A stretch of 64,000 nt of DNA from Gemmatimonadales bacterium (GCA_036558125.1 DATBGE010000108.1:30813-94812), one strand, 5' to 3'. Positions 38,142 through 53,197 are shown, counted from the first letter of the stretch. Program-made: numbers and translations. The notes: generated by a model not told the origin, from the letters alone.

Positions 38142-38995
38142 GCCGTGCTTTCGGTGGCGCTGCGCTGGCCCACGCCGGGATGTACCGGATTAGAGCCGCC
38201 CGACTCGCGAGCCCAGCGGAAGAAGATCACCCCGAAGGCAAACCAGAGTGGAAGGTCGCCGATGATCTTCATGGTGAGTCCCGCGATTTGCTGATCGGAA
38301 TGGGCGGGGAGGTCCATCGCGCGGGGTGCCAGTTCGTACACGCCGTAGAGCGGGTAATCGGCGAAGGTGAGGAAAGCCGCCGGGAGAATCGGCGGCAGGG
38401 TGGCTGCGAAGAGATATCCCATCTTCAAAGGGCGGGTAAGGCGGCCGATCGGCGGGGGCGCCATGATTGCCCACCAGAGCACGATTCCACCGAGGAACCA
38501 TGCCAGGTCGATGGCGAAGGCGCCGAGCTGCGAACCCATCAGTCCGTCTACCACATCCGGAATGTGAGTGCCGATCAGGATCGCGTTGAAAACCGCGAGA
38601 GCGATGAGTGGTCGGGCCAGAATCCGTAAGACCGGCCCCACGCGCGGCGACCGGGAGCCGCTGAGCATGGCCTCACTCGGAATGCCGGCCAGGAGCAGAG
38701 GCGGGGCGATGAGGCTCAGGAGGATGTAGCTGACGGTGTGGAAGCTGACCAGGTAGCCGGTCCCCAACGGACCAATTGGCCAGTCGAGTGCGAGCCAGAC
38801 GGTGAGGAGGCCGGCCGCAAAGAAATAGGCGGCTCGGCGGCTCGGCGGCTCGGCGGCTCGGCTTCGCAGGTCGGGGCCTCGGCGGATAACCAGGAAATAC
38901 AGAACGGCAAGAAGCGCGACGAACAGCCACACGCCGGGATAGGCCTTCCAGGCCCAGGTCCATGGCTGCCCGGTTGCCGAGCACCACCAGGTCAT
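38138..38995 (-). CDS. ctaG: cytochrome c oxidase assembly protein (caa3 CtaG family)
   Basis: Polytopic membrane protein with the FHTVSYILLSLIAPPLLLAGIP and VLWWAIMAPPP patterns typical of this family. Confidence 0.7.
   Translation of the reverse strand: MTWWCSATGQPWTWAWKAYPGVWLFVALLAVLYFLVIRRGPDLRSRAAEPPSRRAAYFFAAGLLTVWLALDWPIGPLGTGYLVSFHTVSYILLSLIAPPLLLAGIPSEAMLSGSRSPRVGPVLRILARPLIALAVFNAILIGTHIPDVVDGLMGSQLGAFAIDLAWFLGGIVLWWAIMAPPPIGRLTRPLKMGYLFAATLPPILPAAFLTFADYPLYGVYELAPRAMDLPAHSDQQIAGLTMKIIGDLPLWFAFGVIFFRWARESGGSNPVHPGVGQRSATESTA
38828..38862. repeat. tandem octamer GGCGGCTC x4 (plus a partial unit) inside the ctaG-like CDS
   Basis: Read directly from sequence. Encodes SRAAEPPSRRAA in the first loop of the protein. 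Confidence 0.9.
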
Positions 38996-39441
38996 TGGTT
39001 GTAGGCCCTGACGGGGAGTTCCAGGGTGACCGTGCCGGCTCGACTGAAGACGAGAGTTACCGGCATCCGCTCACCGGGTTTGGGAAGCCGGCTGAGTTGC
39101 TCGAGCATCAGATGGGTGCCACCAGGCTTGAGTGTCACTTCTTCGCCGGGAGGAATGGGAAGCCGTTCGATCCTCGCCATCCCGGCGGCTCCTTCAGACT
39201 GCATCGTTCCGTGAATCATCGCCGACTTCGCGATGGAGGACTGGACCGACACGAGCGTATCAGGCTTGTCGCTGGTGTTGCGGATCGTGAAGTAGGCGGC
39301 ACCCGACTCCTGCGTGATCGGGGAATACGCGAACCCGCCGGTGATGCGGATGTTCCCGAACTCGGCCTTGAGGGTTGGCGGTGCCGCCTTGCCGCAGCTC
39401 CAGCCAAAGAAGAGCAATCCGGCAAATAGGCCCCGAATCAC
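38992..39441 (-). CDS. copper chaperone PCu(A)C
   Basis: SAMIHGTMQSE...GGTHLMLEQL matches the H(M)x10Mx21HxM-type Cu(I) motif. GTGA overlap with the Sco stop. Lipobox FFGWSCG. Confidence 0.8.
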   Translation of the reverse strand: MIRGLFAGLLFFGWSCGKAAPPTLKAEFGNIRITGGFAYSPITQESGAAYFTIRNTSDKPDTLVSVQSSIAKSAMIHGTMQSEGAAGMARIERLPIPPGEEVTLKPGGTHLMLEQLSRLPKPGERMPVTLVFSRAGTVTLELPVRAYNQ

Positions 39442-40064
39442 GCCGGGCCTACCATCTTCGCGAGAAGTTCCAGGTCTTTGGCCCAATCGGCCTGGCGCAC
39501 GCCGAACGGATAGACCACGTGAGCCGAATCATCCGGCGTGAAGGCAAGAACGAGGGCAGCGTGACCCACGCTGTACCCCGTGTCGGCCGGCGTCAGCTGC
39601 GGCTCTCGTGATGCCTCGCCGAGCTTGAGCCCGCGCTGGATCGCGTTGACTTCGGCGAGGCTACCGCGCAGCCCGACGAATCCGGGATCGAACTTATTCA
39701 GCCACGCGCGGATCACCTCGGGGGTATCGCGGTCGGGATCGGTGGTGACAAACACGACTTCCACCTTCCGCTGGACCTCGGGGCCAAGGGTTTGGAGTGC
39801 CGCGGCGATATTCGCGAGATGCACAGGGCAGACGTCGGGGCAATGGGTGTAACCGAAGAAGAGCAGGGTAATCTTGCCCTCGGTCTGCTGGCGGAAGTTG
39901 AACGGTGATCCGTCGGTCGCGGTCAGGGTGAAGTCAGGTTTGGGAATCGCCTGGCCGAGTGTGGGTCCCGCAAGGCCTGACGGGTTGAAGGCCGCGGGTT
40001 TCCGGTCGCAGCCGATGAGTGCGAGGACCAGCACGACCGAACGAAGGGCTCTTGCGGTAGTCAT
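39438..40064 (-). CDS. SCO family copper chaperone/thiol-disulfide oxidoreductase
   Basis: FGYTHCPDVCP CxxxC motif and a conserved downstream His (GHAALV). Confidence 0.9.
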   Translation of the reverse strand: MTTARALRSVVLVLALIGCDRKPAAFNPSGLAGPTLGQAIPKPDFTLTATDGSPFNFRQQTEGKITLLFFGYTHCPDVCPVHLANIAAALQTLGPEVQRKVEVVFVTTDPDRDTPEVIRAWLNKFDPGFVGLRGSLAEVNAIQRGLKLGEASREPQLTPADTGYSVGHAALVLAFTPDDSAHVVYPFGVRQADWAKDLELLAKMVGPA

Positions 40065-41014
40065 AGTGTGGGGGCCGGCAGAGAGACGAGGACCGCGGTG
40101 GCGACAAGTATCAGCGCCGCCAAGGTCAGCTCGATGGCCGCGGAGCCGCGAAAAGCGGAAGCGCCTTGGGCGGAATCGAGCCGGGGTGAAAGGGATTTCC
40201 AGTGATAGGCGCCGAGAGCCGCGGTGGCACTGAGCAGCACGATCTTGATCAGCAGCGTCTTCCCATACGTACTACCCCAGAAGGCTTCCAGGCTTCCCAC
40301 GTACGCCACCCCGAGCACCACGCCCGCTCCGACAACAAGCGCGGCACCGGTGAGGGCGAGGGGCGAGAACGCCCGCACCATGCGAGCCAGGAGTGCGGTG
40401 CCTTCAAAGGCTCCGCCTTCCCGCACGCCGCGAAACCCCGCCACGAAGAGCACGAAGAGAGTGCCGATCCATACTCCGGCGCCGAGCAGGTGCAGACCGT
40501 GAAGCGAGACACCGGCGAGCCGGCCCCAGGGATTCTCCATTGCGTGTCCGGTGAGCGGCGATGCAAAAGCAACCATCAACGATGCCAGAATGGCCTCGGG
40601 TGAGATGCGAGTTCCATTGTTCCGCGAGCGCCAGCGAGCCAGCCCAAGCAGGACTGCCGCGAGAATGGCCGACCCGATCTGAATCGTCCAACCGCGACCC
40701 CATGTTGTCCCGGCAACGATGGCATGGATCCCATCCGCCGTTGTGGGTTCGGCCGGTTCGAGGAAGGCCCTTGCCTGTCCGTAAAGCCGAAGCAAATGGG
40801 CGCCGATCAGTACGATCGGCGCCGCAAGGACCAGCCGCCAGATTGTCTCGCGGGCTGCGTCGAGGGCTAGGTTACTCCGACCGCCTGGTTCCGAGAATCT
40901 CCCGAGCAACCCGACGCAGACGCTGCCACCGATCGTGACCAGCGTCGCGGTGTAGGCGATCCAGCGGGCCAGGGCGTAGAGGTCGAGTGGAAGTGCGGCG
41001 ACCTGATGATCCAC
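40061..41014 (-). CDS. copD: CopD family copper resistance/import membrane protein
   Basis: About 8 TM helices and the LHGLHLLGAGVWIG motif. The GTG at 41014 avoids a 65-nt overlap with copC. Confidence 0.7.
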   Translation of the reverse strand: MDHQVAALPLDLYALARWIAYTATLVTIGGSVCVGLLGRFSEPGGRSNLALDAARETIWRLVLAAPIVLIGAHLLRLYGQARAFLEPAEPTTADGIHAIVAGTTWGRGWTIQIGSAILAAVLLGLARWRSRNNGTRISPEAILASLMVAFASPLTGHAMENPWGRLAGVSLHGLHLLGAGVWIGTLFVLFVAGFRGVREGGAFEGTALLARMVRAFSPLALTGAALVVGAGVVLGVAYVGSLEAFWGSTYGKTLLIKIVLLSATAALGAYHWKSLSPRLDSAQGASAFRGSAAIELTLAALILVATAVLVSLPAPTL

Positions 41015-41015
41015 G

Positions 41016-41402
41016 TCAATTACTGGCGCCGGTCGGAGCGGAGTAAGTGAACTTGTAGGACCCGCGTACCGGGTGGCCATCTGCGGAACCAGTTTTCCAA
41101 ATCACGATGTATCCACCGGGGGCGAGGCTCACCGGGATGGTACCGGCGACACTCAAGCTGTCGTCGGTCTTCCCAAGCGTGATCCGGGCAACCGGTGCGC
41201 TATCGCTGGAGAGCAGCGCGGCGGAGGACAACGCCACCTCGGGCCGCTCGTTGAACCACAGGCGAACCTGCTTGGGGGCCTCCGTGATCGTGCCATCCAC
41301 GGCGGGCTCGGCCTTCACCAGGTGAGTGTGGATGGCGGCTGCGCCCGATGCGGTAAGGGCGAGGACGGAGAGTAAAATCAGAGTGATACGACGTCCCGAC
41401 AT
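41016..41402 (-). CDS. copC: CopC domain periplasmic copper-binding protein
   Basis: Signal peptide, then a mature N-terminal HTHLVKAEPAVDG... (His at the mature N-terminus) and an Ig-like beta pattern. Confidence 0.8.
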   Translation of the reverse strand: MSGRRITLILLSVLALTASGAAAIHTHLVKAEPAVDGTITEAPKQVRLWFNERPEVALSSAALLSSDSAPVARITLGKTDDSLSVAGTIPVSLAPGGYIVIWKTGSADGHPVRGSYKFTYSAPTGASN

Positions 41403-41453
41403 CGGGGGTCTCCTTGGTGAAAAGGTAAGGCGCTCAATTTAGCCGGGTGGGAC

Positions 41454-41471
41454 GGGGCACAGGAGTGCCCC
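41454..41471 (-). terminator. intra-operon hairpin GGGGCAC-nnnn-GTGCCCC
   Basis: 7-bp perfect GC-rich stem between the TBDR stop (41489) and the copC start (41402). No U-tract, so it may be an attenuator or processing site rather than a terminator. Confidence 0.35.
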
Positions 41472-41488
41472 GCTCCGCAGCCGCGACC

Positions 41489-43795
41489 TCAGACTCCAAA
41501 CGTCAGCCGGAACTGGACACTGCGCGGCCGGCCCACGGATGGTCCGCTGAAGAAGGCTCCTTTCAGCAGGTACTTGTGATCGAAGATGTTGTCGACAAAT
41601 AGCTCCGGGTGAAGGACAACGGTCCCAATGGGGAAGTTGTAGCCGGCACTCGCGTTCAAGATGAAACTGGGCGAGACCTTGATCGACCGGTTGAAGTCGA
41701 ACAAGCCGGTTCCATATGTGGAGTCCGGATCGTTTCCGTTGGTGAGGCCGCTGCCGTAGATACCGGTGGTGCTCAGATACAGCCTCCGGCTGGAATAGTT
41801 GATGCTGGCGACGCCGGACAGACGCTGATCGTGGTCCAAATCGAACACCGGGACGCTCACATCAACGGGGAAGAACCCGCCGGTGATCGGACTGGTGCCG
41901 TACCCGTGGTTCAACGCCAGGTTGAGGTAGCCGGAGACCGGACCGCCGGGGCGAACTTCGAGCACGGTCTCGAGGCCAGTCACCCTGACGGTATTGAGGT
42001 TGACCGAGGTCACGATCGCAGAGCCGGGCACCGTGTTGTCGTCGATCCCCGGATCACTGTCCTTCCGGTATGCGGCGAACTTCGCGACCACACCGATGGG
42101 AAAACGGTGGACCAGCCCCACCTCGTAGAAGTTGTCGCGCTCCGGGAGGGTCGGTGTCGTGGCCACACCGCCGCTCGACGAGCTGGTGATGGCCCGAAGG
42201 TCCTCGACGTTGGTCGGGATGAACTGGCGTCCATAATAGGCGTACATCGTGGTCGCCGTACTCGGGAAGAAGTTGATGCGAATGCGCGGGCTCAGTTGGT
42301 TCTGGTTCCCGGCGAATGGAGCGTTGTGGTTGTCGAAGCGGAGCCCCGGACGAATCTCCCATCGCTCGGATGGCGAGATGGCGGCCTGGACATATACCCC
42401 GATGTCGCTGCCATTCAAATCCGAGTTGCTTGCGGGCCCCGGTTGGCCGGACGCGTCCCGGGTCTCGAAGTCCTCGTGACCCCGGGTCACTGAAGCGAGG
42501 GCTCCCGTCTTGAATTCGAGGCCGTGGTGCGGGCGCAGCGTGTAGTCAAGCTTCAAGCCCGCGGTGTTGAAGTTCCGATCCTCGCTCAGGTTGTACGGTG
42601 TCGTGTCGGGGAAGAAGATGAACTGTGGCGTGTCGTTCGGTCCGGGGGTGAAGGTCAGGCTCCCGTGCCGGTAGAGCGCGCCGAGGAACAGCTCGTCGGG
42701 GGGCCTGGTGGCGTCGCCCTTCCCGAACAGATGTTGCCAGCCCAGGTTGACGAAGCCATTCACGTCTTCCTGGTTGTCATCCGAGATCACTCCGCCGGTT
42801 GAGTCGAACGGCACCTCGAACCTGGTGCGGGACCAGTTGCCATTGAGATTGATGACGTTCCCGCGGCCAGGCGTGTACTGCACCTTGCCGAAGCCGAAGA
42901 GGTCTTCGCCGTGGTTGTGGAAGTTGACCCCGCCCGTGTTGCCTGCCGTATCGAAGACCACGGGCTCCTGCCGCATGTCGGTCTCGGACCTCTGCCCGGA
43001 GCCGAAAAATCCCCAGCGCCCGCTGTTTCCGCTGGCCGTGAACCCCTGGCCATTAGTCGAGAACGATCCACCGTAAGCGGACCCGGTGACATGCAGTCCA
43101 CCGGCCGGAATTCGCGTGCTGACATTCACAATCGCTGCGTTCTTGCCGCCGTACTCCGCGTCCCAGCCTCCGGTCACAAAGTTCATTTCGTTTACCACCG
43201 CCGGGTCGAAGAGCTCATTCAGGCTCCCTGAAACACCCGAGGGAACCGGCACGCCGTCCACGTAGTAAGTGTACTCCGCGTGCTGCCCACGGATGTGCAC
43301 TTCTCCGGTGGGTGCCCGCGCCGCACCTGCGATGGACTGCTGCAGAATTTGCGAAGTGGTGGTCGTCGGAGCCCCGTGGAACTCGTCCTGCTTGTACACT
43401 TGGTCTCCGGATCGGGTATCCACAGCGACAGGGAGCTGAGCCGCAACCGACAGTTCCTGCAACTGCACGGGCGACGGGACCATGCGAACATCGAGCGTGG
43501 TATTCGGTTGGGCACCGCCGATCTTGACCTGAGTCAGCACCGGGTGAAAGCCGATGAACCGAATCTCGGCATCGTACTGCCCGTCGGAAAGATTGTGGAT
43601 CGTGAAACGGCCGAACGCGTCGGCGGAGGTGCGCACGACCACGCGATTCGACTGGGAAAGAATGATGTCAGCCCCGGCCAGGGGGTGGCCGGACGCACTA
43701 TCGGTAACCGTGCCGGTGAGATCGCCATTCACGGTGGGAGGGGCCGCGCCGAGCAGCGCGGCGGCCAGCATGAGCGAGAACATTCGAGCCTCCAC
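41489..43795 (-). CDS. TonB-dependent receptor with N-terminal carboxypeptidase-regulatory-like domain
   Basis: Signal peptide, a CarbopepD_reg-like segment (GTVTDSASGHPLAGADIILS), a plug (GEVHIRGQHAEYTYYVDGVPV) and a long beta-barrel ending in QFRLTFGV. Confidence 0.85.
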   Translation of the reverse strand: MEARMFSLMLAAALLGAAPPTVNGDLTGTVTDSASGHPLAGADIILSQSNRVVVRTSADAFGRFTIHNLSDGQYDAEIRFIGFHPVLTQVKIGGAQPNTTLDVRMVPSPVQLQELSVAAQLPVAVDTRSGDQVYKQDEFHGAPTTTTSQILQQSIAGAARAPTGEVHIRGQHAEYTYYVDGVPVPSGVSGSLNELFDPAVVNEMNFVTGGWDAEYGGKNAAIVNVSTRIPAGGLHVTGSAYGGSFSTNGQGFTASGNSGRWGFFGSGQRSETDMRQEPVVFDTAGNTGGVNFHNHGEDLFGFGKVQYTPGRGNVINLNGNWSRTRFEVPFDSTGGVISDDNQEDVNGFVNLGWQHLFGKGDATRPPDELFLGALYRHGSLTFTPGPNDTPQFIFFPDTTPYNLSEDRNFNTAGLKLDYTLRPHHGLEFKTGALASVTRGHEDFETRDASGQPGPASNSDLNGSDIGVYVQAAISPSERWEIRPGLRFDNHNAPFAGNQNQLSPRIRINFFPSTATTMYAYYGRQFIPTNVEDLRAITSSSSGGVATTPTLPERDNFYEVGLVHRFPIGVVAKFAAYRKDSDPGIDDNTVPGSAIVTSVNLNTVRVTGLETVLEVRPGGPVSGYLNLALNHGYGTSPITGGFFPVDVSVPVFDLDHDQRLSGVASINYSSRRLYLSTTGIYGSGLTNGNDPDSTYGTGLFDFNRSIKVSPSFILNASAGYNFPIGTVVLHPELFVDNIFDHKYLLKGAFFSGPSVGRPRSVQFRLTFGV

Positions 43796-43804
43796 TACGA
43801 GGGA

Positions 43805-44212
43805 TCACGCCACACTGGAGCAGTGCGACGGAGAGTTCTTGAACCGACGGATCAGTTGGAGATCAGGCGGTGTCGGTGGAGGGGCTCGTGAGAGCTGAAG
43901 CGTTCCGGGAGGTGCGGAGGGTGGTGGAACGGAGGCGCGGGTCGGAAGGGCCGTCGCCTGCGGAGCATTGTCCGGCAATGTCGGTGCGCCGACCGCTGCA
44001 GGACCTTGAGTGGACTCGAACGCCTGAGTCAGCGCGCACTCGAGAGCATGTTCGACACCGCCCCGCGGCCTCTCCCAGCGGACCGGCCCTGCCTCGGCGG
44101 GCCGGGGGCCGTGAAAAACGATGCCGTCGACGAGCGGAAGGACGATGCCGCTCACCACCAGGCCGGTGGCGAGCAGCAGGGCTTGCATTCGGACCGCGAG
44201 CGATCGCTTCAT
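43805..44212 (-). CDS. small membrane-anchored His/Cys-motif protein, paralog 1 (leader gene of the Cu module)
   Basis: Aligns by eye with the 47647..47991 and 51539..51880 products: TM helix + LPLVDGIVFHG, VEHALEC, SRAPP. Start at the ATG at 44212 is chosen from the alignment. Confidence 0.55.
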   Translation of the reverse strand: MKRSLAVRMQALLLATGLVVSGIVLPLVDGIVFHGPRPAEAGPVRWERPRGGVEHALECALTQAFESTQGPAAVGAPTLPDNAPQATALPTRASVPPPSAPPGTLQLSRAPPPTPPDLQLIRRFKNSPSHCSSVA

Positions 44213-44410
44213 CTCTCTATGCCGCACCCCGTCGCCCTGCGAGCTTTAGTGAACGCCTTGCCCCGAAGGCCGTCCGGGGCTGGAGGCCAAACCCACAGAC
44301 GATCACCGGACCGGTTGGCAGGTCCCGCCGCAACGATGCCCAGAGTCCCGCGGATACGTGATTCATCGACTGAGTTAGGCAAGCTCGGCTGGCTCTCGTG
44401 GAGGGGAGTG

Positions 44411-44453
44411 GGTGGTGGGGTCGACGGATCGAGTCCGCCTGACCCCCACCACC
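44411..44453 (-). terminator. long GC-rich hairpin downstream of the lipoprotein gene
   Basis: GGTGGTGGGGTC ... GACCCCCACCACC (one bulge) with an inner CGGA/TCCG stem, 15 nt after the stop at 44468. No U-tract. Confidence 0.35.
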
Positions 44454-44467
44454 AGACTCGTTGGAGG

Positions 44468-45124
44468 TTACTGCACCGACACAGGGAAGTTCACCGCCAG
44501 GTCGGTATCGAAGGTGGTGCCCAAGCCGTTGCCCTTCGCCTGCTCGAAGTGATGCAGCTGAACATTCAGGGTCGTGCTCGCTGTTGTTGGCGCTGCTGCA
44601 TCGACAGTAACCGTGTAGGTGGTACCGAGCGTTTGGGGAGGGGCCTGAGTGTCGGTGTTGAGGTTGTCGATGGTGATCATCCTGGTCGGGTCGGCCGGCG
44701 GGATGTTGATGCTATCCGGGGCTGCCAGGGGGTCCGCAGTAATGGTGTAGAAGAAGCGATGGAAGTTCGCCTCGTTGACCACTTCATTAGTGATGTTGAC
44801 GATGTTGTTGGGATCGATGTCGTTCAACAGCGTGATCGTCCCGTTGTATACGGTGCCCTTGGTCAGGGCAAGCGTTGCCGAAGGCGGCTGCGGAGGATCG
44901 GGAAGCTGGGTGCCGTCGGGGTCGATGATCTCGGAGGTGACCGCAGCGCCGCCGCCCACAGGAGTCAGTGTGATGATCACATGGGAGATGTTCTCGGGAT
45001 CGCCCGCGCCTGCGGGGGGTGAGGAAGGGTCGTCTCCACAAGCGCTCCCGAGGATCCCTGCGACAAACACCAGCGCAATGGTTGAGGGACGGAAGTGCCG
45101 GAGAGAGGTTTGCGATGACGGCAT
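44468..45124 (-). CDS. TBDR-associated lipoprotein of unknown function
   Basis: Lipobox GILGSACG. Conserved-looking blocks ISHVIITLTPVGGG, NFHRFFYT and LNVQLHHFEQAKGNG. Lies immediately downstream of a TBDR. Confidence 0.6.
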   Translation of the reverse strand: MPSSQTSLRHFRPSTIALVFVAGILGSACGDDPSSPPAGAGDPENISHVIITLTPVGGGAAVTSEIIDPDGTQLPDPPQPPSATLALTKGTVYNGTITLLNDIDPNNIVNITNEVVNEANFHRFFYTITADPLAAPDSINIPPADPTRMITIDNLNTDTQAPPQTLGTTYTVTVDAAAPTTASTTLNVQLHHFEQAKGNGLGTTFDTDLAVNFPVSVQ

Positions 45125-45160
45125 ATGAGCGCTCCTGTCGGTTGAAGGTGTGCTGCGGTT

Positions 45161-47530
45161 CTATTGGGTGGCTAGCGGCGCGGAGTCGCCGAATGGCACG
45201 GCAAGACGGAGCACGATGTCGCGTCCCGGATCGTTTACGAAGAGCCGGTAGCGACTCAGGTAATCCCGGTATCTCACGTTGAGCAGATTCCGGACGGCGA
45301 GGCTTGCAGTGAGGGGTTGTCCAGCGAGATGAACGGCGCCGACCCCAACCTCGGCGTTAAGCAAGACGTATCCGTCGGTGGGCAGCTTGTAGATTGTGAC
45401 CGGCGGTACCTGGTCCTGCTCACGGACCAGGGTCGCTCCCAGCTCGAGGTAGGGATCCTTTACCGAGCCACTGCTGTGCCCGTAAAGCCGGATATTGGTG
45501 ATGATCCGGTCGGCTGGCATGTCGTACAGCGGATCGCCAGTGCCGCGATCGATCCCGCGCACCAGCGTCCCGCTGACGTAAAAGCTCCACCACCAGTCGG
45601 GGGAGAAGAGCGCCGAGGCCTCGACCCCGCGCAGTCTTGCGTTGGTGTGGTCGTAGCGGTAGCCGGGGTAAGTGCCCCGTACGGTTGAGACGTCACCGAA
45701 GGGGCGCAGGAAGATGTAATCGTTGATCCGGTTCTGATATGCGCTCACTTCGAATCGCAGCGATCGGCTGATGTGCCGCAGGGTCATGTCTACATTCAGG
45801 CCGTCCTCCCTCTGAATGGTGGAATCCCCAAGTTCGTACTGTGCCGTGCCGTGATGCACCCCGGCGCTGTGTAATTCCGCCACATTGGGGGCCCGCCAGG
45901 TCCGTCCGATACTCCCGGCAAGCGACCATCCCTGTCCCAGCTGGAATGCGCTGCTGAGCGATCCCGAGAAACCGTCCCATGTCCGCTCGTCGTCGGGGCT
46001 GATCACCACGGGGTCGCCGTACTGGTAAGCATGCTGCCAGCGGTGGTCATAGCGGAGCCCGGCGGTCAGCGTCCAGCGCTGACTGAGGCTGACCTGCTCC
46101 AGGCCATAGACGCCGCCGGCATAGAGTCGGTATTGAGGAATGAGGAACGAGCGGCCGGGAGACAGGTTTCCCTGCCGCATCCCGCTCAGCCCGAAGGTTC
46201 CCGCGAACCGGCCCATGGGGGCGTGGTGGAGCCGCAGGTCGAGGGTGTGGGTGTAGAGTTCGAGCCCGAAGGCCGGTCGGGTCGACCCGCTGGCGAAGCC
46301 GATACCGTCGTACTCGCTGCGGGTGTTGTGCTGATAGCTGTAGTTCAGCTCCAGTCGGAACTTGGGTGGGAGCACCAGTTCGGTGCGCCACGACAGGAGA
46401 TCGTGCTTTACGGTCTGATAGGGGCGCCCGATTGTGTAGGAAAAGCTGTCACTCGTGAGCGGATCTTTCATCGCCCGGTCGAGGTCGGCCTTGGTGGTCA
46501 CGTGAGCCCCGAGATACATCCCCAGGTCGGTGCCGAAGTGGGAGAAGATCAACTGGCTGGTCCCCCAGGAACGGCTCAGCCCGATTGCCGCGCTGGCGTC
46601 CTTCTCTTCAAAACCGGTATTCGGGAGGTAGTAGTCGGGCGTCTGGGCGTCTCCCGCGCGGCGCAGGGTTCCTTGCACCCGCCAGCCGAGCCGTCCGAGT
46701 ACGGGAAGCCCCAGGGAAGACCCCTCCAGCAACAGGGAGCCCGCGCCCTGATGGTTGTTGCTGAAGACGTTGGTCGAGAAGAGCCCGCCGAAATGCCCGG
46801 TTTGCGGTAGCGGCCTTGGCAGCACCCGCACTACTCCGCCGAGGGCGTCGGAGCCATAAAGAACCGTTCCACTCCCGCGGATCACTTCGACCTCGTTCGC
46901 TGCGAAAGCGTCGATCTCCGGGGCGTGTTCCTCGCCCCACTGCTGCCCTTCCTGCGGCACGTCCCCGTTCATGACCCGCACCCGCTGGGAGTGCAGCCCT
47001 CGAACGACGGGCTTCGCAATGCTTGGCCCGTACTGAATCACCGTGACTCCCGGGAGCTCTTTCAGCGTTTCACCGATGGTCTGGCCGCGGTCACGGGCGA
47101 CCTCCGCCGCCGACATGACCGCTATAGCCTGCTCGTTGTGCAGGGCGGTGGAATCGCCTCTTTCGCCACTGACGACGATGGTGTCCAGCTCGATCGGCCG
47201 AACACCGAGCAGGAGGTCTACGGTCAGGCTTCCGCGGGTGAGATCCACTCGCTGCGCCAGCGGGGCGTAGCCGATCGCCCGCACCGTCAGCAACAGGACC
47301 TCGGAAGGCAACCCGCTGATCTGGTACCGGCCTTCCTGGTCGGTCGCGACGCTTCGATTGAGGTCAGGCACGGCCACCACTGCTCCGGGAACAGGGCGCC
47401 GTGAGGCGGAATCCCGTACCCAGCCCGAGACCTGTACTGTTGTCGGCGTTTCCTGCGCCCCCGCTGCAACCGGAACGGTTGCGACGAGCGCGAGCAGGAA
47501 GGCGGCAGCCACGCCGCTTCTATGATTCAT
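45161..47530 (-). CDS. TonB-dependent receptor with N-terminal carboxypeptidase-regulatory-like domain
   Basis: ATG at 47530 gives a signal peptide. Plug region DTIVVSGER...ETLKELPGVTV, followed by a long barrel. Confidence 0.85.
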   Translation of the reverse strand: MNHRSGVAAAFLLALVATVPVAAGAQETPTTVQVSGWVRDSASRRPVPGAVVAVPDLNRSVATDQEGRYQISGLPSEVLLLTVRAIGYAPLAQRVDLTRGSLTVDLLLGVRPIELDTIVVSGERGDSTALHNEQAIAVMSAAEVARDRGQTIGETLKELPGVTVIQYGPSIAKPVVRGLHSQRVRVMNGDVPQEGQQWGEEHAPEIDAFAANEVEVIRGSGTVLYGSDALGGVVRVLPRPLPQTGHFGGLFSTNVFSNNHQGAGSLLLEGSSLGLPVLGRLGWRVQGTLRRAGDAQTPDYYLPNTGFEEKDASAAIGLSRSWGTSQLIFSHFGTDLGMYLGAHVTTKADLDRAMKDPLTSDSFSYTIGRPYQTVKHDLLSWRTELVLPPKFRLELNYSYQHNTRSEYDGIGFASGSTRPAFGLELYTHTLDLRLHHAPMGRFAGTFGLSGMRQGNLSPGRSFLIPQYRLYAGGVYGLEQVSLSQRWTLTAGLRYDHRWQHAYQYGDPVVISPDDERTWDGFSGSLSSAFQLGQGWSLAGSIGRTWRAPNVAELHSAGVHHGTAQYELGDSTIQREDGLNVDMTLRHISRSLRFEVSAYQNRINDYIFLRPFGDVSTVRGTYPGYRYDHTNARLRGVEASALFSPDWWWSFYVSGTLVRGIDRGTGDPLYDMPADRIITNIRLYGHSSGSVKDPYLELGATLVREQDQVPPVTIYKLPTDGYVLLNAEVGVGAVHLAGQPLTASLAVRNLLNVRYRDYLSRYRLFVNDPGRDIVLRLAVPFGDSAPLATQ

Positions 47531-47646
47531 CCTGGCCTCCGCAATGCATCCGGCAGCGCTAGCTGCTGGGTGCATCGCAACGCCCCGGTCAACCCGGGAA
47601 CGTCAAGGAACTGCGATTTCTATTTCGCGAGAGTGAGGAGAACAGC

Positions 47647-47991
47647 TCAGAGCGAGGCGGGAGGAGCGCGGGAGTGGCACTGCGATTGGGGTTGGTGGAC
47701 CAATAAGACTGGAGTGGCGAGCGGGCGGGTCCGTACTGCAGAGAGGAGCAGCCCGGCTATCTGCGTGGGGATCGCGGGAGTGCAGCGGCCGACATTCCGT
47801 GCCAGCGATAGAGCACAGACAGCCCCGTGGCCGACATCTCGGCCGGGTGCCGACAGGGTCTCGCCCTGTGGTTGGGAAACTCCGGGCTTGGAATGGAAGG
47901 CCAGGGCATCGAACACCGGCAAGCCGAAGCCGCCGCCCACCAGGGCAGCGAACAGGACCAGTGCCTTAAGCCGGACCCAATGCCGATTCAT
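47647..47991 (-). CDS. small membrane-anchored His/Cys-motif protein, paralog 2 (leader gene of the TBDR-lipoprotein module)
   Basis: TM helix + LPVFDALAFHS, VGHGAVC, C-terminal SRAPPASL. Confidence 0.55.
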   Translation of the reverse strand: MNRHWVRLKALVLFAALVGGGFGLPVFDALAFHSKPGVSQPQGETLSAPGRDVGHGAVCALSLARNVGRCTPAIPTQIAGLLLSAVRTRPLATPVLLVHQPQSQCHSRAPPASL

Positions 47992-48126
47992 GAGCCTAAA
48001 CTAGCACGGGCACAACAGAAAGCGAAAGCCTGCTTGGGCCTGTCGACTGGCGAGGGTCATTTCTCACCATCGTCCTGTCGGGGGAACGCCGAGCGCCGCC
48101 GTTCCAATCCATCCGATGGCAATGGG

Positions 48127-48978
48127 TTACGCATTGGAGTCTATCCCGAGCTCGACTCCCAATACCTTGCGAGCGGCATATGCAACCAGGAGCAGCAGTC
48201 CGAACACGCAGACCACGACGGGCCCGGTAGGGAGGTCATACTGGAACGAGAGCCAAAGCCCGCCGGCCGAGCAGAGGACCCCGGCAACCCAGGACAGAGC
48301 TGACAGGGGACCGGTACGACGGGTGAACTGGAATGCGATGGCAGCCGGGACCACCAGGAATGAAAAAACCAGCAGGACCCCGACGATTGGGACCGAGAAA
48401 GTGATCACCAGCCCGAAGGAGAGGTAGAACAGGAAGTCCCAGAACTTGAGGTTCCAACCATTGGCGAGCGCTATTTCGGGTTCGAAGGATATGGTGAGGA
48501 ACCTGCGCCGCAGGATCCAGTGAAACAGCCCGACGAGGACGTAGACCAAAGCCAGCCGACCGATCGCGGGCCAGCCAACCCACAAGAGACTGCCCACCAG
48601 AATGTCCTTGATGGCTTCCCCGCCCCTTGGTGAGCGATCCGCCACGAGGATGCCGGCCGCCGAGGCGACGACAAACACGATTCCGATGATCGCCTCCTGG
48701 GGCACCCGCCCATGTCGGCCGGTGCGAGTCAGGGCGAACAGCGCGGCACCCAGAGTCGTGAAGCCGAGCGCGGAGGCAAAACTGCGGGTCGAATCGGGAT
48801 CTGCACCGGCGAAGATGGCGATGGTCGATCCCAACGCGGCCATCTGCGCCAGCGAGAGATCTACGAAAATGACCTCGCGGGCGATCACATGGAGACCGAG
48901 GTAGGAATGGATCGCCACGATCACCATGCAGGCTACCAGCGGAGCAAGCCACAGGCTGTGTACCAGCTGGTCGATCAT
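48127..48978 (-). CDS. metal ABC transporter permease (ZnuB/TroC-like)
   Basis: ATG at 48978 (MIDQLVHSLWLAPLVA...) overlaps the SBP stop (TGATG). About 8 TM helices typical of the ABC-3 family. The upstream part of the 49302 ORF is a shadow of the SBP gene. Confidence 0.85.
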   Translation of the reverse strand: MIDQLVHSLWLAPLVACMVIVAIHSYLGLHVIAREVIFVDLSLAQMAALGSTIAIFAGADPDSTRSFASALGFTTLGAALFALTRTGRHGRVPQEAIIGIVFVVASAAGILVADRSPRGGEAIKDILVGSLLWVGWPAIGRLALVYVLVGLFHWILRRRFLTISFEPEIALANGWNLKFWDFLFYLSFGLVITFSVPIVGVLLVFSFLVVPAAIAFQFTRRTGPLSALSWVAGVLCSAGGLWLSFQYDLPTGPVVVCVFGLLLLVAYAARKVLGVELGIDSNA

Positions 48979-50102
48979 CAGGCGCCTCCTCCTGTGAAGC
49001 CCGCGGCGAGACTGGAGATCCAGGTATTCATGAGATCGAAGTAGGTCTCGACACCCGGGGCCCCATGGGTGTTCTCCGGAACGATCACTGCCTTCGCGCC
49101 GGTCTTGGCTGCCACCTCTCCGATTTGGTTGCGATTGAAATAGTTGGACGCAAAGAGCACCGGAATCTTCCGCTCCTTCATCAGCGCGATCACTTCTTCC
49201 ACGTGCTTCGGCGTCGGTGGGATCCCCGGCTTCGCTTCGATGAAGGTGGCGCAGACCACCTTGAACCGGTTGCTGAAATAGGCCCATTCCTTGTGGTAGC
49301 ATGCCATTTCCCGTCCGCGGAAGACCTCACCCTGCTTGAGCCACCCTCCCAGATGATCGGAGAGCGGCTTGCCTTGGTATTTCGTGCGACCGATGAAGTC
49401 GAACAGCTTGTCGGTCTTGAGCAGGTCGAACGCGGTCGCGGGAGTGAGAATGCCGACCAGCTCCTGCCCCATGGTGGCCTCGAGAATCCGCTTCTCGAAG
49501 TCCTTTTCGCGATCCGTGAAGTAACTGGCATCTCCCGGGGAGACCCGGGTCAGACCGGTCATGATATTCCGCGCGATGATGATCGCGTTCAGTGGATCGG
49601 TGTGAATGTGGGGATTGCCGTCGGCGTGAATATCTCCCTGCGCCCGATTCAGACTGGTGGGGACCTCCAGCAGCGTGATGCCGGTATAGGCGGTGACGTA
49701 CCCGGGCCCGCCCTCGGACACCTTCCGGTTGTTGGCTCGGTCGAGCAGCGCCGGGACCCAAAGCTCCAAATCGAGTCCGGTCGTCACGAACAGATCCGCG
49801 TCGCGCAGGACCGCCACGAAGCTCGGCTTGGGCTGCACGAAGTGAGGATCCTCGTCGCCCTGGGCGATCGAAGTTATCGTGCCGCGATCGCCAGCAATCT
49901 CCCGCGCGATCGCCCCATAGGTCGTCAGGCTGGTGACGATCTTGAGCGGTGCGGTCCTTAAGGACTCCCTCGCTCCCGACTCGCGCTGTCGCGCTCCTGA
50001 GGGTCGCTCGGTCGCGACTCGGCGGCTCGGCGGCTCGGCGGCATGATGACTGGGCGGCTCGGCGAACAGCCCGGAAGCGATGGTGAGGAGAGCGAGAATC
50101 AT
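48978..50102 (-). CDS. metal ABC transporter substrate-binding protein (ZnuA/TroA cluster-9 family)
   Basis: LKIVTSLTTYGAIAREI...DPHFVQPKPS...DIHADGNPHIHTDP His-rich metal-site pattern. Confidence 0.85.
   Translation of the reverse strand: MILALLTIASGLFAEPPSHHAAEPPSRRVATERPSGARQRESGARESLRTAPLKIVTSLTTYGAIAREIAGDRGTITSIAQGDEDPHFVQPKPSFVAVLRDADLFVTTGLDLELWVPALLDRANNRKVSEGGPGYVTAYTGITLLEVPTSLNRAQGDIHADGNPHIHTDPLNAIIIARNIMTGLTRVSPGDASYFTDREKDFEKRILEATMGQELVGILTPATAFDLLKTDKLFDFIGRTKYQGKPLSDHLGGWLKQGEVFRGREMACYHKEWAYFSNRFKVVCATFIEAKPGIPPTPKHVEEVIALMKERKIPVLFASNYFNRNQIGEVAAKTGAKAVIVPENTHGAPGVETYFDLMNTWISSLAAGFTGGGA
50021..50064. repeat. octamer GGCGGCTC copies (2.5 tandem plus 1.5 more after a 12-nt gap) inside the SBP CDS
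   Basis: Read directly from sequence. Encodes AEPPSHHAAEPPSRR just after the signal peptide. Same unit as in ctaG. Confidence 0.9.
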
Positions 50103-51464
50103 TTAGTAGGTCTCGTGCTTGTGGGGGCCCATGGCGAACACCGCCTGGAGCAGAACCCGGTTGTCGGTGCCGTTGACGCTGTCGTGGTGGTGCTGGCCTT
50201 CCAGTCGGAGATACACGAACTCACTCTCCCACCAGGTGATGGCAGGTGTTATTCCCCATTCATTCGTATCGGGACCCCGCGGTGTTTCGACGTAGTCGTA
50301 CCGGGCGCCCAGGATCCAGCGCTGGCTGACCCGGAATGCCGCGTCGACAAAGGCGCCGTAGCGGGTCTGGGCCAGGCCCGCCTCTTTCGAGTGGAACTGG
50401 TAGCCTTCGGCTCTCAGGGTGAGATCCTGCCGGGTCCCGGCGTTGGGCGGACGCCAGGTCAGCCGGGCATCCAGGCCCAGCACTCGGCTGGTGAGAGCGC
50501 TGTCGGAATTGTCTCCCCCGAGTGCGGTGAAGCCGATCTGGCCGTAGGTGCTGCGGCTCAGCTGCCAGAAGTTCTGCAGCCGGCCCAGAAGGGTGGTGTG
50601 CCGGTCGGTCCCGAAGAGCGGATCGCTCTCGACCGACGTCGCCTGGGCCCAGATCTCGTGAGTGCCGTGCACCAGCGAAACGGGGAGCGTGGTGTAAAGG
50701 GAGAGTCCTACACCCGACAGGCCGTCGTCGCCGAAAAACCGGCGATAGACCAGGGGGTACTCAGACTCGGGAAGGGCGTGGAGGTGCCAGCGATTGAGAT
50801 CACCGACCTGCTGCCGATAGAGTCCTACGTCGGCTCGAATCCGCCCGGGAAGACCGGTCCAGTAGAGATAGCCTTCCTCTACGCCGACCTCTTCATTCTC
50901 GAAGGTCAGGAAGACCTTTGCGGTCGAGTAGGGGTCCAAGGTGGACTGGAGGCCTACCTCAAATTCGCGAGCCTGCGCGTCGAAATGTTCAGACCCATCC
51001 TGCCCGACCAGGCGGATGTCGCCTGTGGCGCTGATCTCCGGATTCAGGGCTGAGCCGCTGCGCTGGCGCCCGACAAATTCGGTGCGACCGGCCGCCGCAG
51101 TGTCAACCGGCGCCCCAACCGGCCGGCCGGCGGCAGAGTCAGCCGCGGCGCGCAATGCTGCCAGATCGTCGCCAGCCGTGTCCGGTGCGGCTCCCAGGCA
51201 TCGCTGGGCAACCAGCTTCTCCACTCGCTGATTCAGCCGATCGAGCGCAGTGGCCAGGCTGTCCGCAGCCGGCTCACCGGTCGGATGAGCAGGCAGTCGA
51301 ACCGCTGGCCCCGCGGGGCAAAGGCCCGCTTCCAGAGTATCCAGTCGCGCATTCAACGCGTGGACTGCACTCAGGGCGGAATCGGGTACCTGTGCGCTGG
51401 CGATCTGTCCACCGGTGAACAGGAGGACGAACAGGAGGACCGCACAGTGGGAGCGGTCTGTCAT
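50103..51464 (-). CDS. putative outer-membrane beta-barrel porin with N-terminal coiled-coil region
   Basis: Signal peptide from the ATG at 51464, heptad-like segments (LNARLDTLEAG, LDRLNQRVEKL), an NPEISATGD motif, alternating beta pattern and a terminal aromatic (...HKHETY). Confidence 0.6.
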   Translation of the reverse strand: MTDRSHCAVLLFVLLFTGGQIASAQVPDSALSAVHALNARLDTLEAGLCPAGPAVRLPAHPTGEPAADSLATALDRLNQRVEKLVAQRCLGAAPDTAGDDLAALRAAADSAAGRPVGAPVDTAAAGRTEFVGRQRSGSALNPEISATGDIRLVGQDGSEHFDAQAREFEVGLQSTLDPYSTAKVFLTFENEEVGVEEGYLYWTGLPGRIRADVGLYRQQVGDLNRWHLHALPESEYPLVYRRFFGDDGLSGVGLSLYTTLPVSLVHGTHEIWAQATSVESDPLFGTDRHTTLLGRLQNFWQLSRSTYGQIGFTALGGDNSDSALTSRVLGLDARLTWRPPNAGTRQDLTLRAEGYQFHSKEAGLAQTRYGAFVDAAFRVSQRWILGARYDYVETPRGPDTNEWGITPAITWWESEFVYLRLEGQHHHDSVNGTDNRVLLQAVFAMGPHKHETY

Positions 51465-51538
51465 AGAACTCCAGAGCAAAGCCCGGCTGAGGAAGGCCGT
51501 GACCGGACTGGTTAATCAGTTGTCGAGAGCTGAGCTGA

Positions 51539-51880
51539 TCAGGCGAGATACGACGGCGGTGCTCGAGGAAGGACTGAAGTGTGAACTGGCGCGGAGAGCA
51601 GGTGAGGATTGTTGCGTGCGATGATCGCGACTCCGACGGGCATCTCGGCGTGGGTCTGCGGAGAGCTCGCTACGAGCACACGACCGCCTCGAAGTTGATC
51701 GGCCTGCGGACATTGGACTGCATGGCCGCCGCTGCTCGTCGCTTCGAGCCGGACCTCGAGCGCCGTGGCCGCACCCCGTCCGTGGAACATCACGGCGTCG
51801 GCCCCCGGGAGGATGACTCCTCCGAAGAGGCCCACCAGTAAGAGCGCGAGCGCCGGCAGGCGACGACGGAAGGAATGCAT
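51539..51880 (-). CDS. small membrane-anchored His/Cys-motif protein, paralog 3 (leader gene of the porin-ZnuAB module)
   Basis: TM helix + LPGADAVMFHG, GGHAVQC, C-terminal PRAPPSYLA. Confidence 0.55.
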   Translation of the reverse strand: MHSFRRRLPALALLLVGLFGGVILPGADAVMFHGRGAATALEVRLEATSSGGHAVQCPQADQLRGGRVLVASSPQTHAEMPVGVAIIARNNPHLLSAPVHTSVLPRAPPSYLA

Positions 51881-51921
51881 CGGGATCGAACCTAGAAGGG
51901 TGGCGGGATCGCGTCTAGTCG

Positions 51922-51958
51922 AAAAAACGGAAAGGGCGGCTTGACCGACGCCGTTTTT
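51922..51958. terminator. terminator-shaped hairpin with flanking A6/T5 tracts
   Basis: AAAAACGG ... CCGTTTTT outer stem with an inner GGCG/CGCC pairing. It lies in a divergent intergenic region, so its role is unclear. Confidence 0.3.
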
Positions 51959-51970
51959 CTCGTATCTTCA

Positions 51971-51982
51971 ATGTATATACAT
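51971..51982. promoter_or_regulatory. perfect palindrome ATGTATATACAT, candidate mazEF operator / -10 region
   Basis: 12-bp perfect palindrome 14 bp upstream of the mazE ATG. Confidence 0.35.
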
Positions 51983-51995
51983 CAGAGTTAATCAG

Positions 51996-52235
51996 ATGCG
52001 AGTTCGTATCTCGAAATGGGGTAATAGCTTGGGAATCAGGATCCCGAAGGCGTTCACCCTGGAAACGGGTTTGGCCGACGGGTCAGAGGTTGATATCAGT
52101 GTCTCTGGCGGTCGCATCGTCCTGACTCCGCTGGGCCGGGAGTATGGGCTCGAGGAACTGGCCGATCAGATCACGCCAGAAAATCGGCACGGTGAAACCG
52201 ACTGGGGAAAGCCGGTCGGGCGTGAGGTCGTGTGA
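51996..52235 (+). CDS. mazE: AbrB/MazE/SpoVT family antitoxin
   Basis: The MRVRISKWGNSLGIRIPKAF swapped-hairpin N-terminus is diagnostic. Confidence 0.8.
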   Translation: MRVRISKWGNSLGIRIPKAFTLETGLADGSEVDISVSGGRIVLTPLGREYGLEELADQITPENRHGETDWGKPVGREVV

Positions 52236-52549
52236 CGCCAGATCGGGGCGACGTGGTCTGGGTGACGGTCGAACCCGAAAACCACGGGCAGAAGGCGCGA
52301 CGTGCTGCGCTCGTTGTCTCACCCGCGCACTATAACGGCCGGGCTCGGCTGGCTCTCATGTGTGCGATCGCCCCATCGGCAAAGGGCTATCCCTTCGAGG
52401 TGCCCTTGCCTGAGAATCTCCCGGTGAGCGGCGTGGTCCTGGCCGATCATCTGCGTAGCGCCGATTGGGAGGCGCGACAGGCGGAGCTGGCATGCAGGGT
52501 CCCGGCGGGGGTAGTGGCGGAGGTGCTGGCGAAATTGAAGCCGTTGTAA
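52232..52549 (+). CDS. mazF: MazF/PemK family type II toxin (endoribonuclease)
   Basis: PDRGDVVWV...ALVVSP...CAIAPSAKGYPFEV pattern. GTGA overlap with mazE. Confidence 0.8.
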   Translation: MTPDRGDVVWVTVEPENHGQKARRAALVVSPAHYNGRARLALMCAIAPSAKGYPFEVPLPENLPVSGVVLADHLRSADWEARQAELACRVPAGVVAEVLAKLKPL

Positions 52550-52552
52550 AAA

Positions 52553-52622
52553 TGGCGGGATGGCGGGATGGCGGGATGGCGGAATGGCGGAATGGCGGAA
52601 TGACGAGAGACGAGAGACGAGG
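52553..52622 (+). repeat. compound tandem array: 3 x TGGCGGGA, 3 x TGGCGGAA, 3 x GACGAG[AG]
   Basis: Read directly from sequence. Starts 4 nt after the mazF TAA stop. Confidence 0.95.
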
Positions 52623-52651
52623 AGATTGCTGATGTTCAGGAGTGAGGCCCG

Positions 52652-53197
52652 ATGAGCATTCCGATAGTGACGCTGAATCCTTCGCTACCCAAGTGCCCGC
52701 TCTCGTTCGAGGTGAACGGAGAGACGGTGCACTGTCTCATTCCTCCTCAGAAGACCCTCCTCGAAGTCCTCCGGGAGGACCTGCAGCTCACCGGTACCAA
52801 ACACGGCTGCGAGCTCGGCGAATGCGGGACCTGCAGCGTCCTGGTCGACGGGGTTCCCATCCTTTCCTGTCTCGAGCTGGGACTCGCCTGCGAGAATCGG
52901 TCGGTCACGACGGTGGAAGGTCTCGCGGCGGGCGCCGTGCTTCATCCGTTACAACAGGCGTTCGCCGAACTGGGTGCGGCTCAGTGTGGTTACTGCACTC
53001 CGGGGATCCTGCTCACGGCCAGGGCGCTTCTCGAGGAGAACCCGTCTCCGGCGCGACCAGAAATCGTCGCCGCGCTGGGCGGCAATCTCTGCCGGTGTAC
53101 CGGATACGTGAAGATCTACGAGGCCGTGGAGCTGGCGGCCGCGCGCATGCGGGGCGAAGCGGCTGAACCGGCGCGGGAGAGTCTGTATGGCCGCTAA
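52652..53197 (+). CDS. (2Fe-2S)-binding small subunit of a xanthine dehydrogenase/CO dehydrogenase family molybdoenzyme
   Basis: Plant-type CELGECGTCSV and a second CGYCTPG...CRCTGY cluster motif. Confidence 0.9.
   Translation: MSIPIVTLNPSLPKCPLSFEVNGETVHCLIPPQKTLLEVLREDLQLTGTKHGCELGECGTCSVLVDGVPILSCLELGLACENRSVTTVEGLAAGAVLHPLQQAFAELGAAQCGYCTPGILLTARALLEENPSPARPEIVAALGGNLCRCTGYVKIYEAVELAAARMRGEAAEPARESLYGR

Follow-up and report, generated by a model that had tools for sequence, protein, structure and literature searches.

Candidate metal-sensing arrest leader peptides at the head of three metal modules in a Gemmatimonadales genome

Small ORFs at the head of three modules

Three small open reading frames (ORFs) were investigated in a stretch of 64,000 nucleotides (nt) of DNA from a Gemmatimonadales bacterium (GCA_036558125.1 DATBGE010000108.1:30813-94812), hereafter called the window. 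ORF A (43805..44212), ORF B (47647..47991) and ORF C (51539..51880) lie on the minus strand, encode proteins of 135, 114 and 113 amino acids (aa), and are each the first gene of a module of metal-homeostasis genes. By analogy with CruR of Bordetella pertussis and CutF of Rhodobacter capsulatus, they are probably cis-acting, metal-sensing arrest leader peptides encoded by upstream ORFs (uORFs).

The three proteins could be aligned end to end: a basic N-terminus was followed by a hydrophobic stretch, the motif LPxxD[GA]xxFH, an H-x3-C motif, a Pro/Ala-rich tail and [SP]RAPP. In A, H55-x3-C59 was followed by a linker of 49 aa and RAPP at residues 109-112. B had H55-x3-C59, a linker of 48 aa and RAPP at 108-111, then three codons and the stop. 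C had D28, H33, H53-x3-C57, a linker of 48 aa and RAPP at 106-109, then four codons and the stop. The RAPP codons were CGA GCC CCU CCA in A (43877..43888, minus strand), CGC GCU CCU CCC in B (47659..47670, minus strand; containing CCUCC) and CGA GCA CCG CCG in C (51554..51565, minus strand; the predicted ribosome arrest site). Pairwise BLASTP gave E values of 1e-6 for A-B, 1.7e-7 for A-C and 0.06 for B-C. The positions and the shared layout of the three ORFs, as described in the initial annotation, were confirmed.

Hypothetical proteins with identical sequences are encoded by a Gemmatimonadales metagenome-assembled genome (MAG). When A, B and C were scanned against Pfam and NCBIfam, no family was assigned, and the sole match (PAAR, E 0.037) was a chance match. 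A six-frame translation of the window, searched with a profile built from A, B and C, revealed no fourth copy. An AlphaFold2 (AF2) model of C, based on an alignment of 142 sequences, showed a helix at residues 3-33 whose end carries D28 and H33; another, short helix followed C57, and the rest was coil. The mean predicted local distance difference test score (pLDDT) was 75 and the predicted template modelling score (pTM) was 0.36. This coil-rich model agrees with the reported lack of structure in CruR. CruR/CutF-like uORFs encode fewer than 150 aa, with an N-terminal export signal or an Nin-Cout helix; in line with this, all three proteins were shorter than 150 aa and had a basic N-terminus and, going by the AF2 model of C, a hydrophobic helix.

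The C-terminus of A was atypical, with a tail of 23 residues after RAPP (43805..43876), which was found in one of 140 members of the family described below. The stop codon of A lies 12 nt upstream of the GGAGG of the next gene (TonB receptor 1), so a terminating ribosome would cover that site, and termination-reinitiation coupling from A to TonB receptor 1 is possible.

Family, conservation and taxonomy

An exhaustive profile search over 1.84 billion cluster representatives (cut-off E<=1e-3) revealed 273 cluster representatives, nearly all of 110-116 aa, and the family thus has at least 273 sequence clusters. Together with the BLASTP results, this established A, B and C as paralogs within a real, unannotated family, as had been supposed. 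Among 142 aligned members the Asp, both His and R-x-P-P were invariant, while 140 had the Cys and 134 had Ala at the second position of RAPP. The F-H and H-x3-C residues singled out in the three copies were thus conserved across the family (both His 142/142, Cys 140/142), and the remainder of the C-terminal half was essentially unconserved. A conserved Cys/His motif, which in sequence is a putative metal motif of the kind found in CruR/CutF-like uORFs, is present.

The spacing from Cys to the Arg of RAPP was 47-48 residues in 136 of 140 members; in the window it was 49 (A), 48 (B) and 48 (C). Between RAPP and the stop there were 2-4 residues in 133/140 members and 1-7 in 139/140, the exception being copy A with its 23. 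RAPP therefore fell within the last 15 residues, as in CruR/CutF-like uORFs, in every one of the 140 but copy A. Because the stretch of about 48 residues between Cys and RAPP is constant in length and not in sequence, it resembles a ruler rather than a folded domain.

A degenerate DNA pattern of the family motifs was scanned over one genome per prokaryotic species, which gave 103 loci, 92 of them in-frame and uninterrupted. All of these 92 were from Gemmatimonadota, except one MAG titled only 'bacterium'. Thirteen pattern matches in other phyla were rejected as chance, being all out of frame or interrupted by stops. Every named protein match came from Gemmatimonadales. This region of the window has 63% G+C and many overlapping antisense ORFs, as would be seen if A, B and C were spurious ORFs in G+C-rich DNA; that explanation is effectively refuted by hundreds of homologs of constant length, by invariant residues kept in frame and by a conserved gene order.

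Between the helix and H-x3-C, many members carried further conserved ligand-like residues. One pattern, H-[IVFY]-[ED], precedes H-x3-C by about 10 residues; another is [CH]-H-x-[ED]-x-C. The copies in the window lacked them and had R-x-E or nothing at that position. These extra residues may confer different metal specificities.

Gene order downstream of the leaders

All genes from 38138 to 51880 were co-directional and formed three modules. Module 1 (38138..43783, minus strand), downstream of A, consisted of TonB receptor 1 (41489..43783), CopC (41016..41402), CopD (40061..41080), Sco (39438..40064), PCuAC (38992..39486) and Caa3_CtaG (38138..38995), all on the minus strand. Module 2 (44468..47530, minus strand), downstream of B, consisted of TonB receptor 2 (45161..47530) and a putative lipoprotein of 218 aa (44468..45124), both also on the minus strand. 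Module 3, downstream of C and on the minus strand throughout, consisted of a 453-aa secreted protein with a signal-peptide-like N-terminus as its second gene (50103..51464), a ZnuA-like substrate-binding protein (48978..50102) and an ABC-3 (ZnuB-like) permease (48127..about 48990). Most of the neighbours named in the initial annotation were recovered: the TonB receptors, the CopC/CopD/Sco/PCuAC/CtaG set and the ZnuA/ZnuB-like pair. The porin-like barrel that it placed second in module 3 was unconfirmed, since the 453-aa protein had no match in Pfam, NCBIfam or the PDB, profile searches included. The lipoprotein of module 2 is represented by the 218-aa gene, whose lipobox-like N-terminus was read by eye only.

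Gene order was conserved across the family. Next-gene statistics were taken from the 83 of the 92 in-frame loci that had at least 600 nt of downstream sequence. The gene following the leader was a TonB receptor in 39, a homolog of the 453-aa protein in 30 and an outer-membrane efflux factor (OMF) in 14, which accounts for 83/83 loci. Family members are therefore syntenic with outer-membrane transporter genes, as had been predicted, and efflux is included as well as uptake. The 30 loci with a 453-aa homolog continued with ZnuA and then ZnuB wherever the sequence extended that far. The 14 OMF-headed loci were L008, L010, L016, L025, L035, L044, L056, L067, L080, L093, L097, L098, L104 and L106; where these were examined, an HlyD-type adaptor came next (L010), or a CusA/CzcA-family resistance-nodulation-division (RND) pump was found (L056, 937 bits against a cut-off of 701). 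Near-identical leaders headed TonB receptors and CusA/CzcA efflux operons, sometimes within one locus (L104). Spacers from leader to next gene were short, with medians of 76-105 nt, and measured 21-116 nt in the window. Leaders thus occupy the first-gene, same-strand position upstream of metal-homeostasis genes that is typical of CruR/CutF-like uORFs.

Two side observations concern these loci. Where examined, OMF-led operons had a strong G+C-rich hairpin in the spacer between leader and gene. In L017, L066 and L068, the leader of TonB-receptor type began a few nt after an ORF ending in ...GDRLEV*, which is the C-terminus of the RND pump of L106.

The downstream genes were never protein-localisation components, as they would be for a Sec/YidC monitoring substrate. 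This bears on the alternative that the leaders are force-sensing arrest peptides for membrane insertion or secretion (of the SecM, MifM, VemP or ApdA/ApdP type) and not metal sensors. An N-terminal export signal combined with a C-terminal RAPP is indeed found in ApdA/ApdP; but the next genes here are never Sec/YidC and always metal transporters, and four invariant metal-ligand residues stand at a fixed distance from RAPP, which makes force sensing very improbable.

No regulator gene was found within the three modules, in agreement with the initial annotation, and leader peptides would explain the absence of a classical regulator. In two related contigs, a single leader headed the whole set of 453-aa gene, ZnuA, ZnuB, CopC, CopD, Sco, PCuAC and CtaG. 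Compared with this arrangement, the window appears to have the operon plus two additional units of leader and TonB receptor. The overall theme of the modules is copper supply to cytochrome oxidase, and possibly zinc too.

Predicted pairing of the putative arrest codons with the downstream Shine-Dalgarno site

A strong Shine-Dalgarno (SD) site of the form GGAG/GGAGG preceded every downstream gene, and each of these genes encoded a signal peptide. RNA positions were counted from R, the base with which the Arg codon in RAPP begins. Ensemble predictions gave a sequestered downstream SD in 78/82 loci, and 58% of the SD pairing mass fell on R+6..R+23, that is, on the two Pro codons and the short tail. 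For the 75 loci of the uptake class, the SD pairing mass on R+3..R+23 had a mean of 0.58 and a median of 0.71, while equal upstream windows gave 0.037 and shuffled upstream sequence gave 0.047. When the four RAPP codons were replaced by their commonest synonyms, the median fell from 0.71 to 0.09 (Wilcoxon p=6e-7). In addition, within each class, cognate duplexes of arrest site and SD had an advantage in stability of 2.8-4.5 kcal/mol over non-cognate combinations (permutation p<=5e-5).

Codon use pointed the same way. The first Pro codon was CCU or CCA, which are rare, in 55 of 85 loci (65%), compared with 15% for the other Pro codons of those loci, and this choice creates CCUCC or CCACC. Judged from these sequence patterns, the RAPP codons are apparently under selection at the RNA level.

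In the window, the SD of TonB receptor 1 (GGAGG 43793..43789, with ATG 43783..43781; 43781..43793, minus strand) was predicted to pair with the RAPP codons of A, in which CGAGCCCCUCCAC is complementary to GUGGAGGCUCG at the start region of the receptor gene; this pairing took 0.71-0.99 of the SD pairing mass. The SD of TonB receptor 2 (GGAGG 47540..47536, with ATG 47530..47528; 47528..47540, minus strand) was mostly paired, and its partner depended on the folded context, with 0.17-0.63 of the mass on the stall footprint of B. The SD of the 453-aa gene (GGAG 51472..51469, with ATG 51464..51462; 51462..51472, minus strand) was also predicted to be sequestered, with an unpaired probability of 0.02-0.03; its main partner was CUCC just after the start codon, and pairing with the L-P codons before RAPP of C was the minority (0-0.34 of the mass). 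In the efflux class (n=8), whose start codons are uncertain, SD pairing with the stall footprint had a median of 0.01, and in several cases the arrest codons were predicted to pair with the start region instead; an inverted RNA logic in this class is conceivable.

The RNA of the linker and RAPP was rich in C and poor in G (across the family 46.6% C and 27.9% G; in the window 40-44% and 22-25%), compared with balanced composition in the downstream genes. This composition, together with the published model for Bordetella CruR, would suit an arrest peptide whose output is Rho-dependent termination instead of SD unmasking, with the stalled ribosome shielding a Rho utilization (rut) site in the C-rich 3' half. 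Spacers here are short compared with the 162 nt of B. pertussis, the C-richness follows from Pro and Ala codons and may not be selected, and a mechanism using Rho only does not need the codon-supported pairing of SD and arrest site. A Rho-dependent output, which is compatible with the main reading of metal-sensing arrest leaders that unmask the SD, is regarded as possible but doubtful.

A stable protein was proposed in the initial annotation, namely an inner-membrane-anchored periplasmic metallochaperone or sensor, or a partner of the outer-membrane transporter; on this view, RAPP would mediate contact between proteins. The invariant potential ligands D, H, H and C, the N-terminal hydrophobic helix and the constant adjacency to outer-membrane transporter genes would all suit such an accessory. 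Its linker between Cys and RAPP, however, is kept in length and not in sequence, RAPP is fixed 2-4 residues before the stop in 133/140 members, selection acts on the RAPP codons at the RNA level, the leader precedes three unrelated kinds of outer-membrane protein, and the model is mostly coil; moreover, mature CruR and CutF are undetectable or rapidly degraded. A stable accessory is hence unlikely, and a cis-acting leader is preferred because the linker is fixed only in length, RAPP is near the stop, the SD is paired to the RAPP codons and the modelled protein is unstructured. A dual role as leader and stable protein is possible.

Leader start sites

Out of 97 leaders, 87 had no SD site. More than half had a TAnnnT hexamer beginning 12-15 nt upstream of the ATG, and several had GGAACC about 17 nt further upstream. 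In the window, the -10-like hexamer TAGGTT (51889..51894, minus strand) was located 8 nt before the ATG of C, which has no SD, and TAGTTT (47998..48003, minus strand) was located 6 nt before the ATG of B, likewise with no SD; copy A had no TAnnnT hexamer. The lack of an SD site together with the nearby hexamer suggests that the leader ORFs are translated from leaderless mRNAs.

Relation to DUF2946

Proteins of the DUF2946 family had been named as the nearest concept for the three ORFs. This pointer was partly borne out: DUF2946 was the sole recurrent Pfam match, with 29 of 142 members at E<=1 (best 7.6e-4) against at most two members for any other family, and CruR is itself a DUF2946 protein. 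All these matches were below threshold. The Pfam gathering threshold for DUF2946 (PF11162) of 23.7 bits was not reached by any tested member, and A, B and C gave no match to DUF2946 even at E<=10. Example alignments scored 7-14.5 bits; they followed the profile colinearly up to its last part, which coincides with RAPP.

For comparison, two proteins were recovered from plasmids: a DUF2946 protein before PCuAC (Azospirillum, L111) and a CruR-like protein before PepSY/Sco (Rhizobium, L110). The Azospirillum protein scored 38.8 bits against DUF2946, and the Rhizobium protein, which has CXXC, 45 residues and RAPP, scored 14.4 bits. A score this low for a protein of CruR architecture indicates that the Pfam DUF2946 model under-covers the superfamily. 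A protein search from the rhizobial CruR-like seed found 18 close relatives, and these carried no Pfam labels. Profile-profile alignment with hhalign gave weak matches, either of the RAPP segment only (probability 5.6%, E 0.007) or of H-x3-C-x-L with GHCPLCPL (E 0.07). The Azospirillum DUF2946 protein reads H-C-x-x-C, and its His and second Cys align with H-x3-C.

Proposed mechanism

Modelled on the published relatives, regulation by A, B and C would proceed as follows. The leader ORF would be translated from the 5' end of the operon mRNA, which is probably leaderless, and its N-terminal hydrophobic helix would serve as an export or membrane-anchor signal. On reaching Arg-Ala-Pro-Pro, which in most members is 2-4 codons away from the stop, the ribosome would stall in peptide-bond formation, its P site occupied by the first Pro codon and its A site by the second. 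At the stall, H-x3-C would be about 51-55 residues from the peptidyl-transferase centre, just beyond the exit tunnel, and the Asp and His at the helix end about 76-81 residues from it. For C57 of copy C the distance to the P site would be about 51 residues, which is the geometry discussed for CutF.

In the free mRNA, the RAPP codons and tail are predicted to pair with the SD of the next gene. A stalled ribosome would cover them and keep precisely this segment single-stranded, so that the SD would be freed and the transporter translated. It would also protect the linker RNA, which is rich in C and poor in G, against Rho. Binding of metal, most likely copper and possibly zinc, to the Asp, His, His and Cys residues would alter the duration of the stall; in uptake modules, metal would release the stall and switch the module off. 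Arrest at RAPP, metal binding by these residues and the sign of the response are here presumed from what has been published for the relatives. The family itself, its invariant residues, fixed spacing, synteny, predicted RNA pairing and codon bias are observations from the present analysis.

Several points weigh against this reading. Arrest, metal binding and regulation rest, for this family and phylum, on sequence and analogy. Homology to DUF2946 was not statistically established; common descent is plausible. Near-identical leaders occur on uptake and efflux operons, so one sign of response cannot suit all of them. Within the window, pairing of the SD with RAPP codons is robust for A only. When the footprint was forced to be unpaired in silico, the mean SD accessibility rose only from 0.11 to 0.20, because of alternative partners in G+C-rich RNA, and the thermodynamic model alone is thus no demonstration of switching. 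Finally, the codons for RAPP are rich in C by nature, and a degree of complementarity to an SD is to be expected anyway; the shifted-window, shuffle, recoding and non-cognate controls address this concern, computationally only.

A broader proposal is that a single nascent-chain sensor has diversified in Gemmatimonadota, in which the arrest codons act as anti-SD, paralogs gate separate metal routes, and the sign is opposite for efflux and set by the RNA context. This proposal is speculative and, taken as a whole, rather unlikely. If it were true, the paralogs, three of them in this one locus, would independently gate different metal routes, one carrying copper to cytochrome oxidase, one of the ZnuA/B type and one through a second TonB receptor, and the leader would be a general, programmable co-translational metal switch rather than a one-off copper device.

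Other features of the window

An ABC (ATP-binding cassette) ATPase gene was absent from the ZnuA/ABC-3 module in the window and in the related contigs L001 and L003, where the order of the ZnuA-like and ABC-3 genes was identical. Alignment of 23 homologs of the 453-aa protein showed a helical N-terminal part with conserved Cys residues and a conserved C-terminal ...GPHKHETY; the copy in the window ends in ...HETY. A single-sequence structure model of this protein was uninformative (pLDDT 35).

Divergent from leader C, on the plus strand, were genes for an antitoxin resembling MazE/AbrB (about 52000..52234) and a toxin resembling PemK (52232..52549). A MazE/PemK-like pair also adjoined the orthologous leader in L001 and L002. 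Between the mazE-like gene and leader C, at 51925..51965, there was a hairpin with a T-run behind it (ggcg..gccgcc ctttccgtttttt). Located at 44400..44460 on the minus strand, between the 218-aa gene and leader A, was a long inverted repeat, GGTGGTGGGGGTC ... GACCCCACCACC, which is possibly a terminator separating modules 2 and 1. A scan for consensus promoters and terminators was uninformative and did not pick up this repeat. An Rfam scan of 37000..53000 found no family.

Comparison with known systems

The kind of element proposed here is known from CruR and CutF, and its mechanism has already been described in proteobacteria; the leaders are therefore not the undescribed accessory that had been suggested, as the reports on CruR (PMC9426467) and CutF (PMC9973294) and the survey of RAPP/RGPP uORFs (PMC12992588) make clear. 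Descriptions of copper-sensing arrest leaders date only from 2022-2025 and are confined to proteobacteria; the two models put forward are in conflict, namely Rho termination for CruR and SD unmasking for CutF. Gemmatimonadota were not in the table of CruR homologs and were not mentioned in those parts of the text and supplements of the CutF papers that were available; in the accessible part of the supplements of the RAPP/RGPP survey (PMC12992588), no Gemmatimonadota entry was found. A literature search found no paper tying Gemmatimonadota to such leader peptides.

New elements are a phylum-specific clade with an Asp/His plus H-x3-C site, arrest codons that appear to act as anti-SD, as backed by the codon bias, apparently leaderless leader ORFs, and tandem use over three modules. 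The Gemmatimonadota clade carries the principle to another phylum and a different ligand set, and it offers about 90 natural variants in which the arrest codons apparently double as anti-SD. With its paralogs on uptake as well as efflux operons, it also lends itself to studying what determines the sign of the response. The annotation is also corrected, as the leaders ('hypothetical proteins') and the 453-aa family are currently unannotated.

Two systems that respond to other signals share part of the architecture. ApdA/ApdP (PMC12992588; structures in PMC10951233) have RAPP near the C-terminus, a localisation signal and the uORF position; however, they precede Sec components and carry no metal motif. 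In SecM-secA, the C-terminal arrest motif RAGP lies a few codons before the stop, and the stall disrupts a helix hiding the downstream SD. SecM differs in that it senses secretion force and not metal, and the sequence families are unrelated.

CruR (Bp2923) of B. pertussis, a DUF2946 protein, has CXXC, 45 residues, RAPP and three further residues (Roy et al. 2022, PMC9426467). Mutation of RAPP abolished expression of the downstream TonB-dependent transporter, mutation of CXXC abolished copper control (repression), and lengthening the spacer by 5 residues impaired regulation (PMC9426467). Toeprinting showed that CruR arrests at RAPP while its two Pro codons occupy the P and A sites, and the same survey found RAPP/RGPP uORFs before TonB-receptor, PCuAC, YcnI and PepSY genes across phyla (PMC12992588). 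Like A, B and C, CruR is a small first gene of a TonB-dependent-transporter operon, with an N-terminal export signal, a C-rich 3' region and a Cys-containing metal motif at a fixed distance (about 45 residues) from a C-terminal RAPP, with three residues after it. Members of the CruR family also head PCuAC/Sco/CopC operons. CruR differs in having CXXC where the present family has H-x3-C plus the invariant Asp and His at the helix end, and in a spacing of 45 rather than 47-48 residues. Its spacer to the next gene is 162 nt, compared with 21-116 nt in the window. Rho action has been proposed for CruR, while here the SD is predicted to be paired to the RAPP codons, which are frequent codons in B. 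pertussis and rare in the Gemmatimonadota family.

CutF of R. capsulatus is a nascent-chain sensor of periplasmic copper, whose stall melts a stem-loop that conceals cutO's ribosome-binding site (Ozturk et al. 2023, PMC9973294; bioRxiv 10.1101/2025.02.05.636593). In the 29 published 'CutF-like' clusters, the sites are built from Cys, from His or from both, and the genes that follow are OEP/CusA, TonB-like and PCuAC genes (PMC9973294; bioRxiv 10.1101/2025.02.05.636593). CutF and the present leaders have in common an exported nascent chain as metal sensor, a C-terminal proline motif, a spacing of about 45 residues, and an mRNA stem in which the downstream ribosome-binding site is hidden until a stalled ribosome opens it; for the leaders, the sensing and the opening are predictions. 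CutF differs in its CxxxC, in preceding a multicopper oxidase and in a proline motif that is not RAPP, whereas in the Gemmatimonadota family the predicted sequestering partner is formed by the arrest-site codons themselves. Both signs of response are known, since metal releases the stall in CruR and copper prolongs it in CutF. The architecture of A, B and C matches that of CruR and CutF, and by this analogy the mechanism is probably the same.

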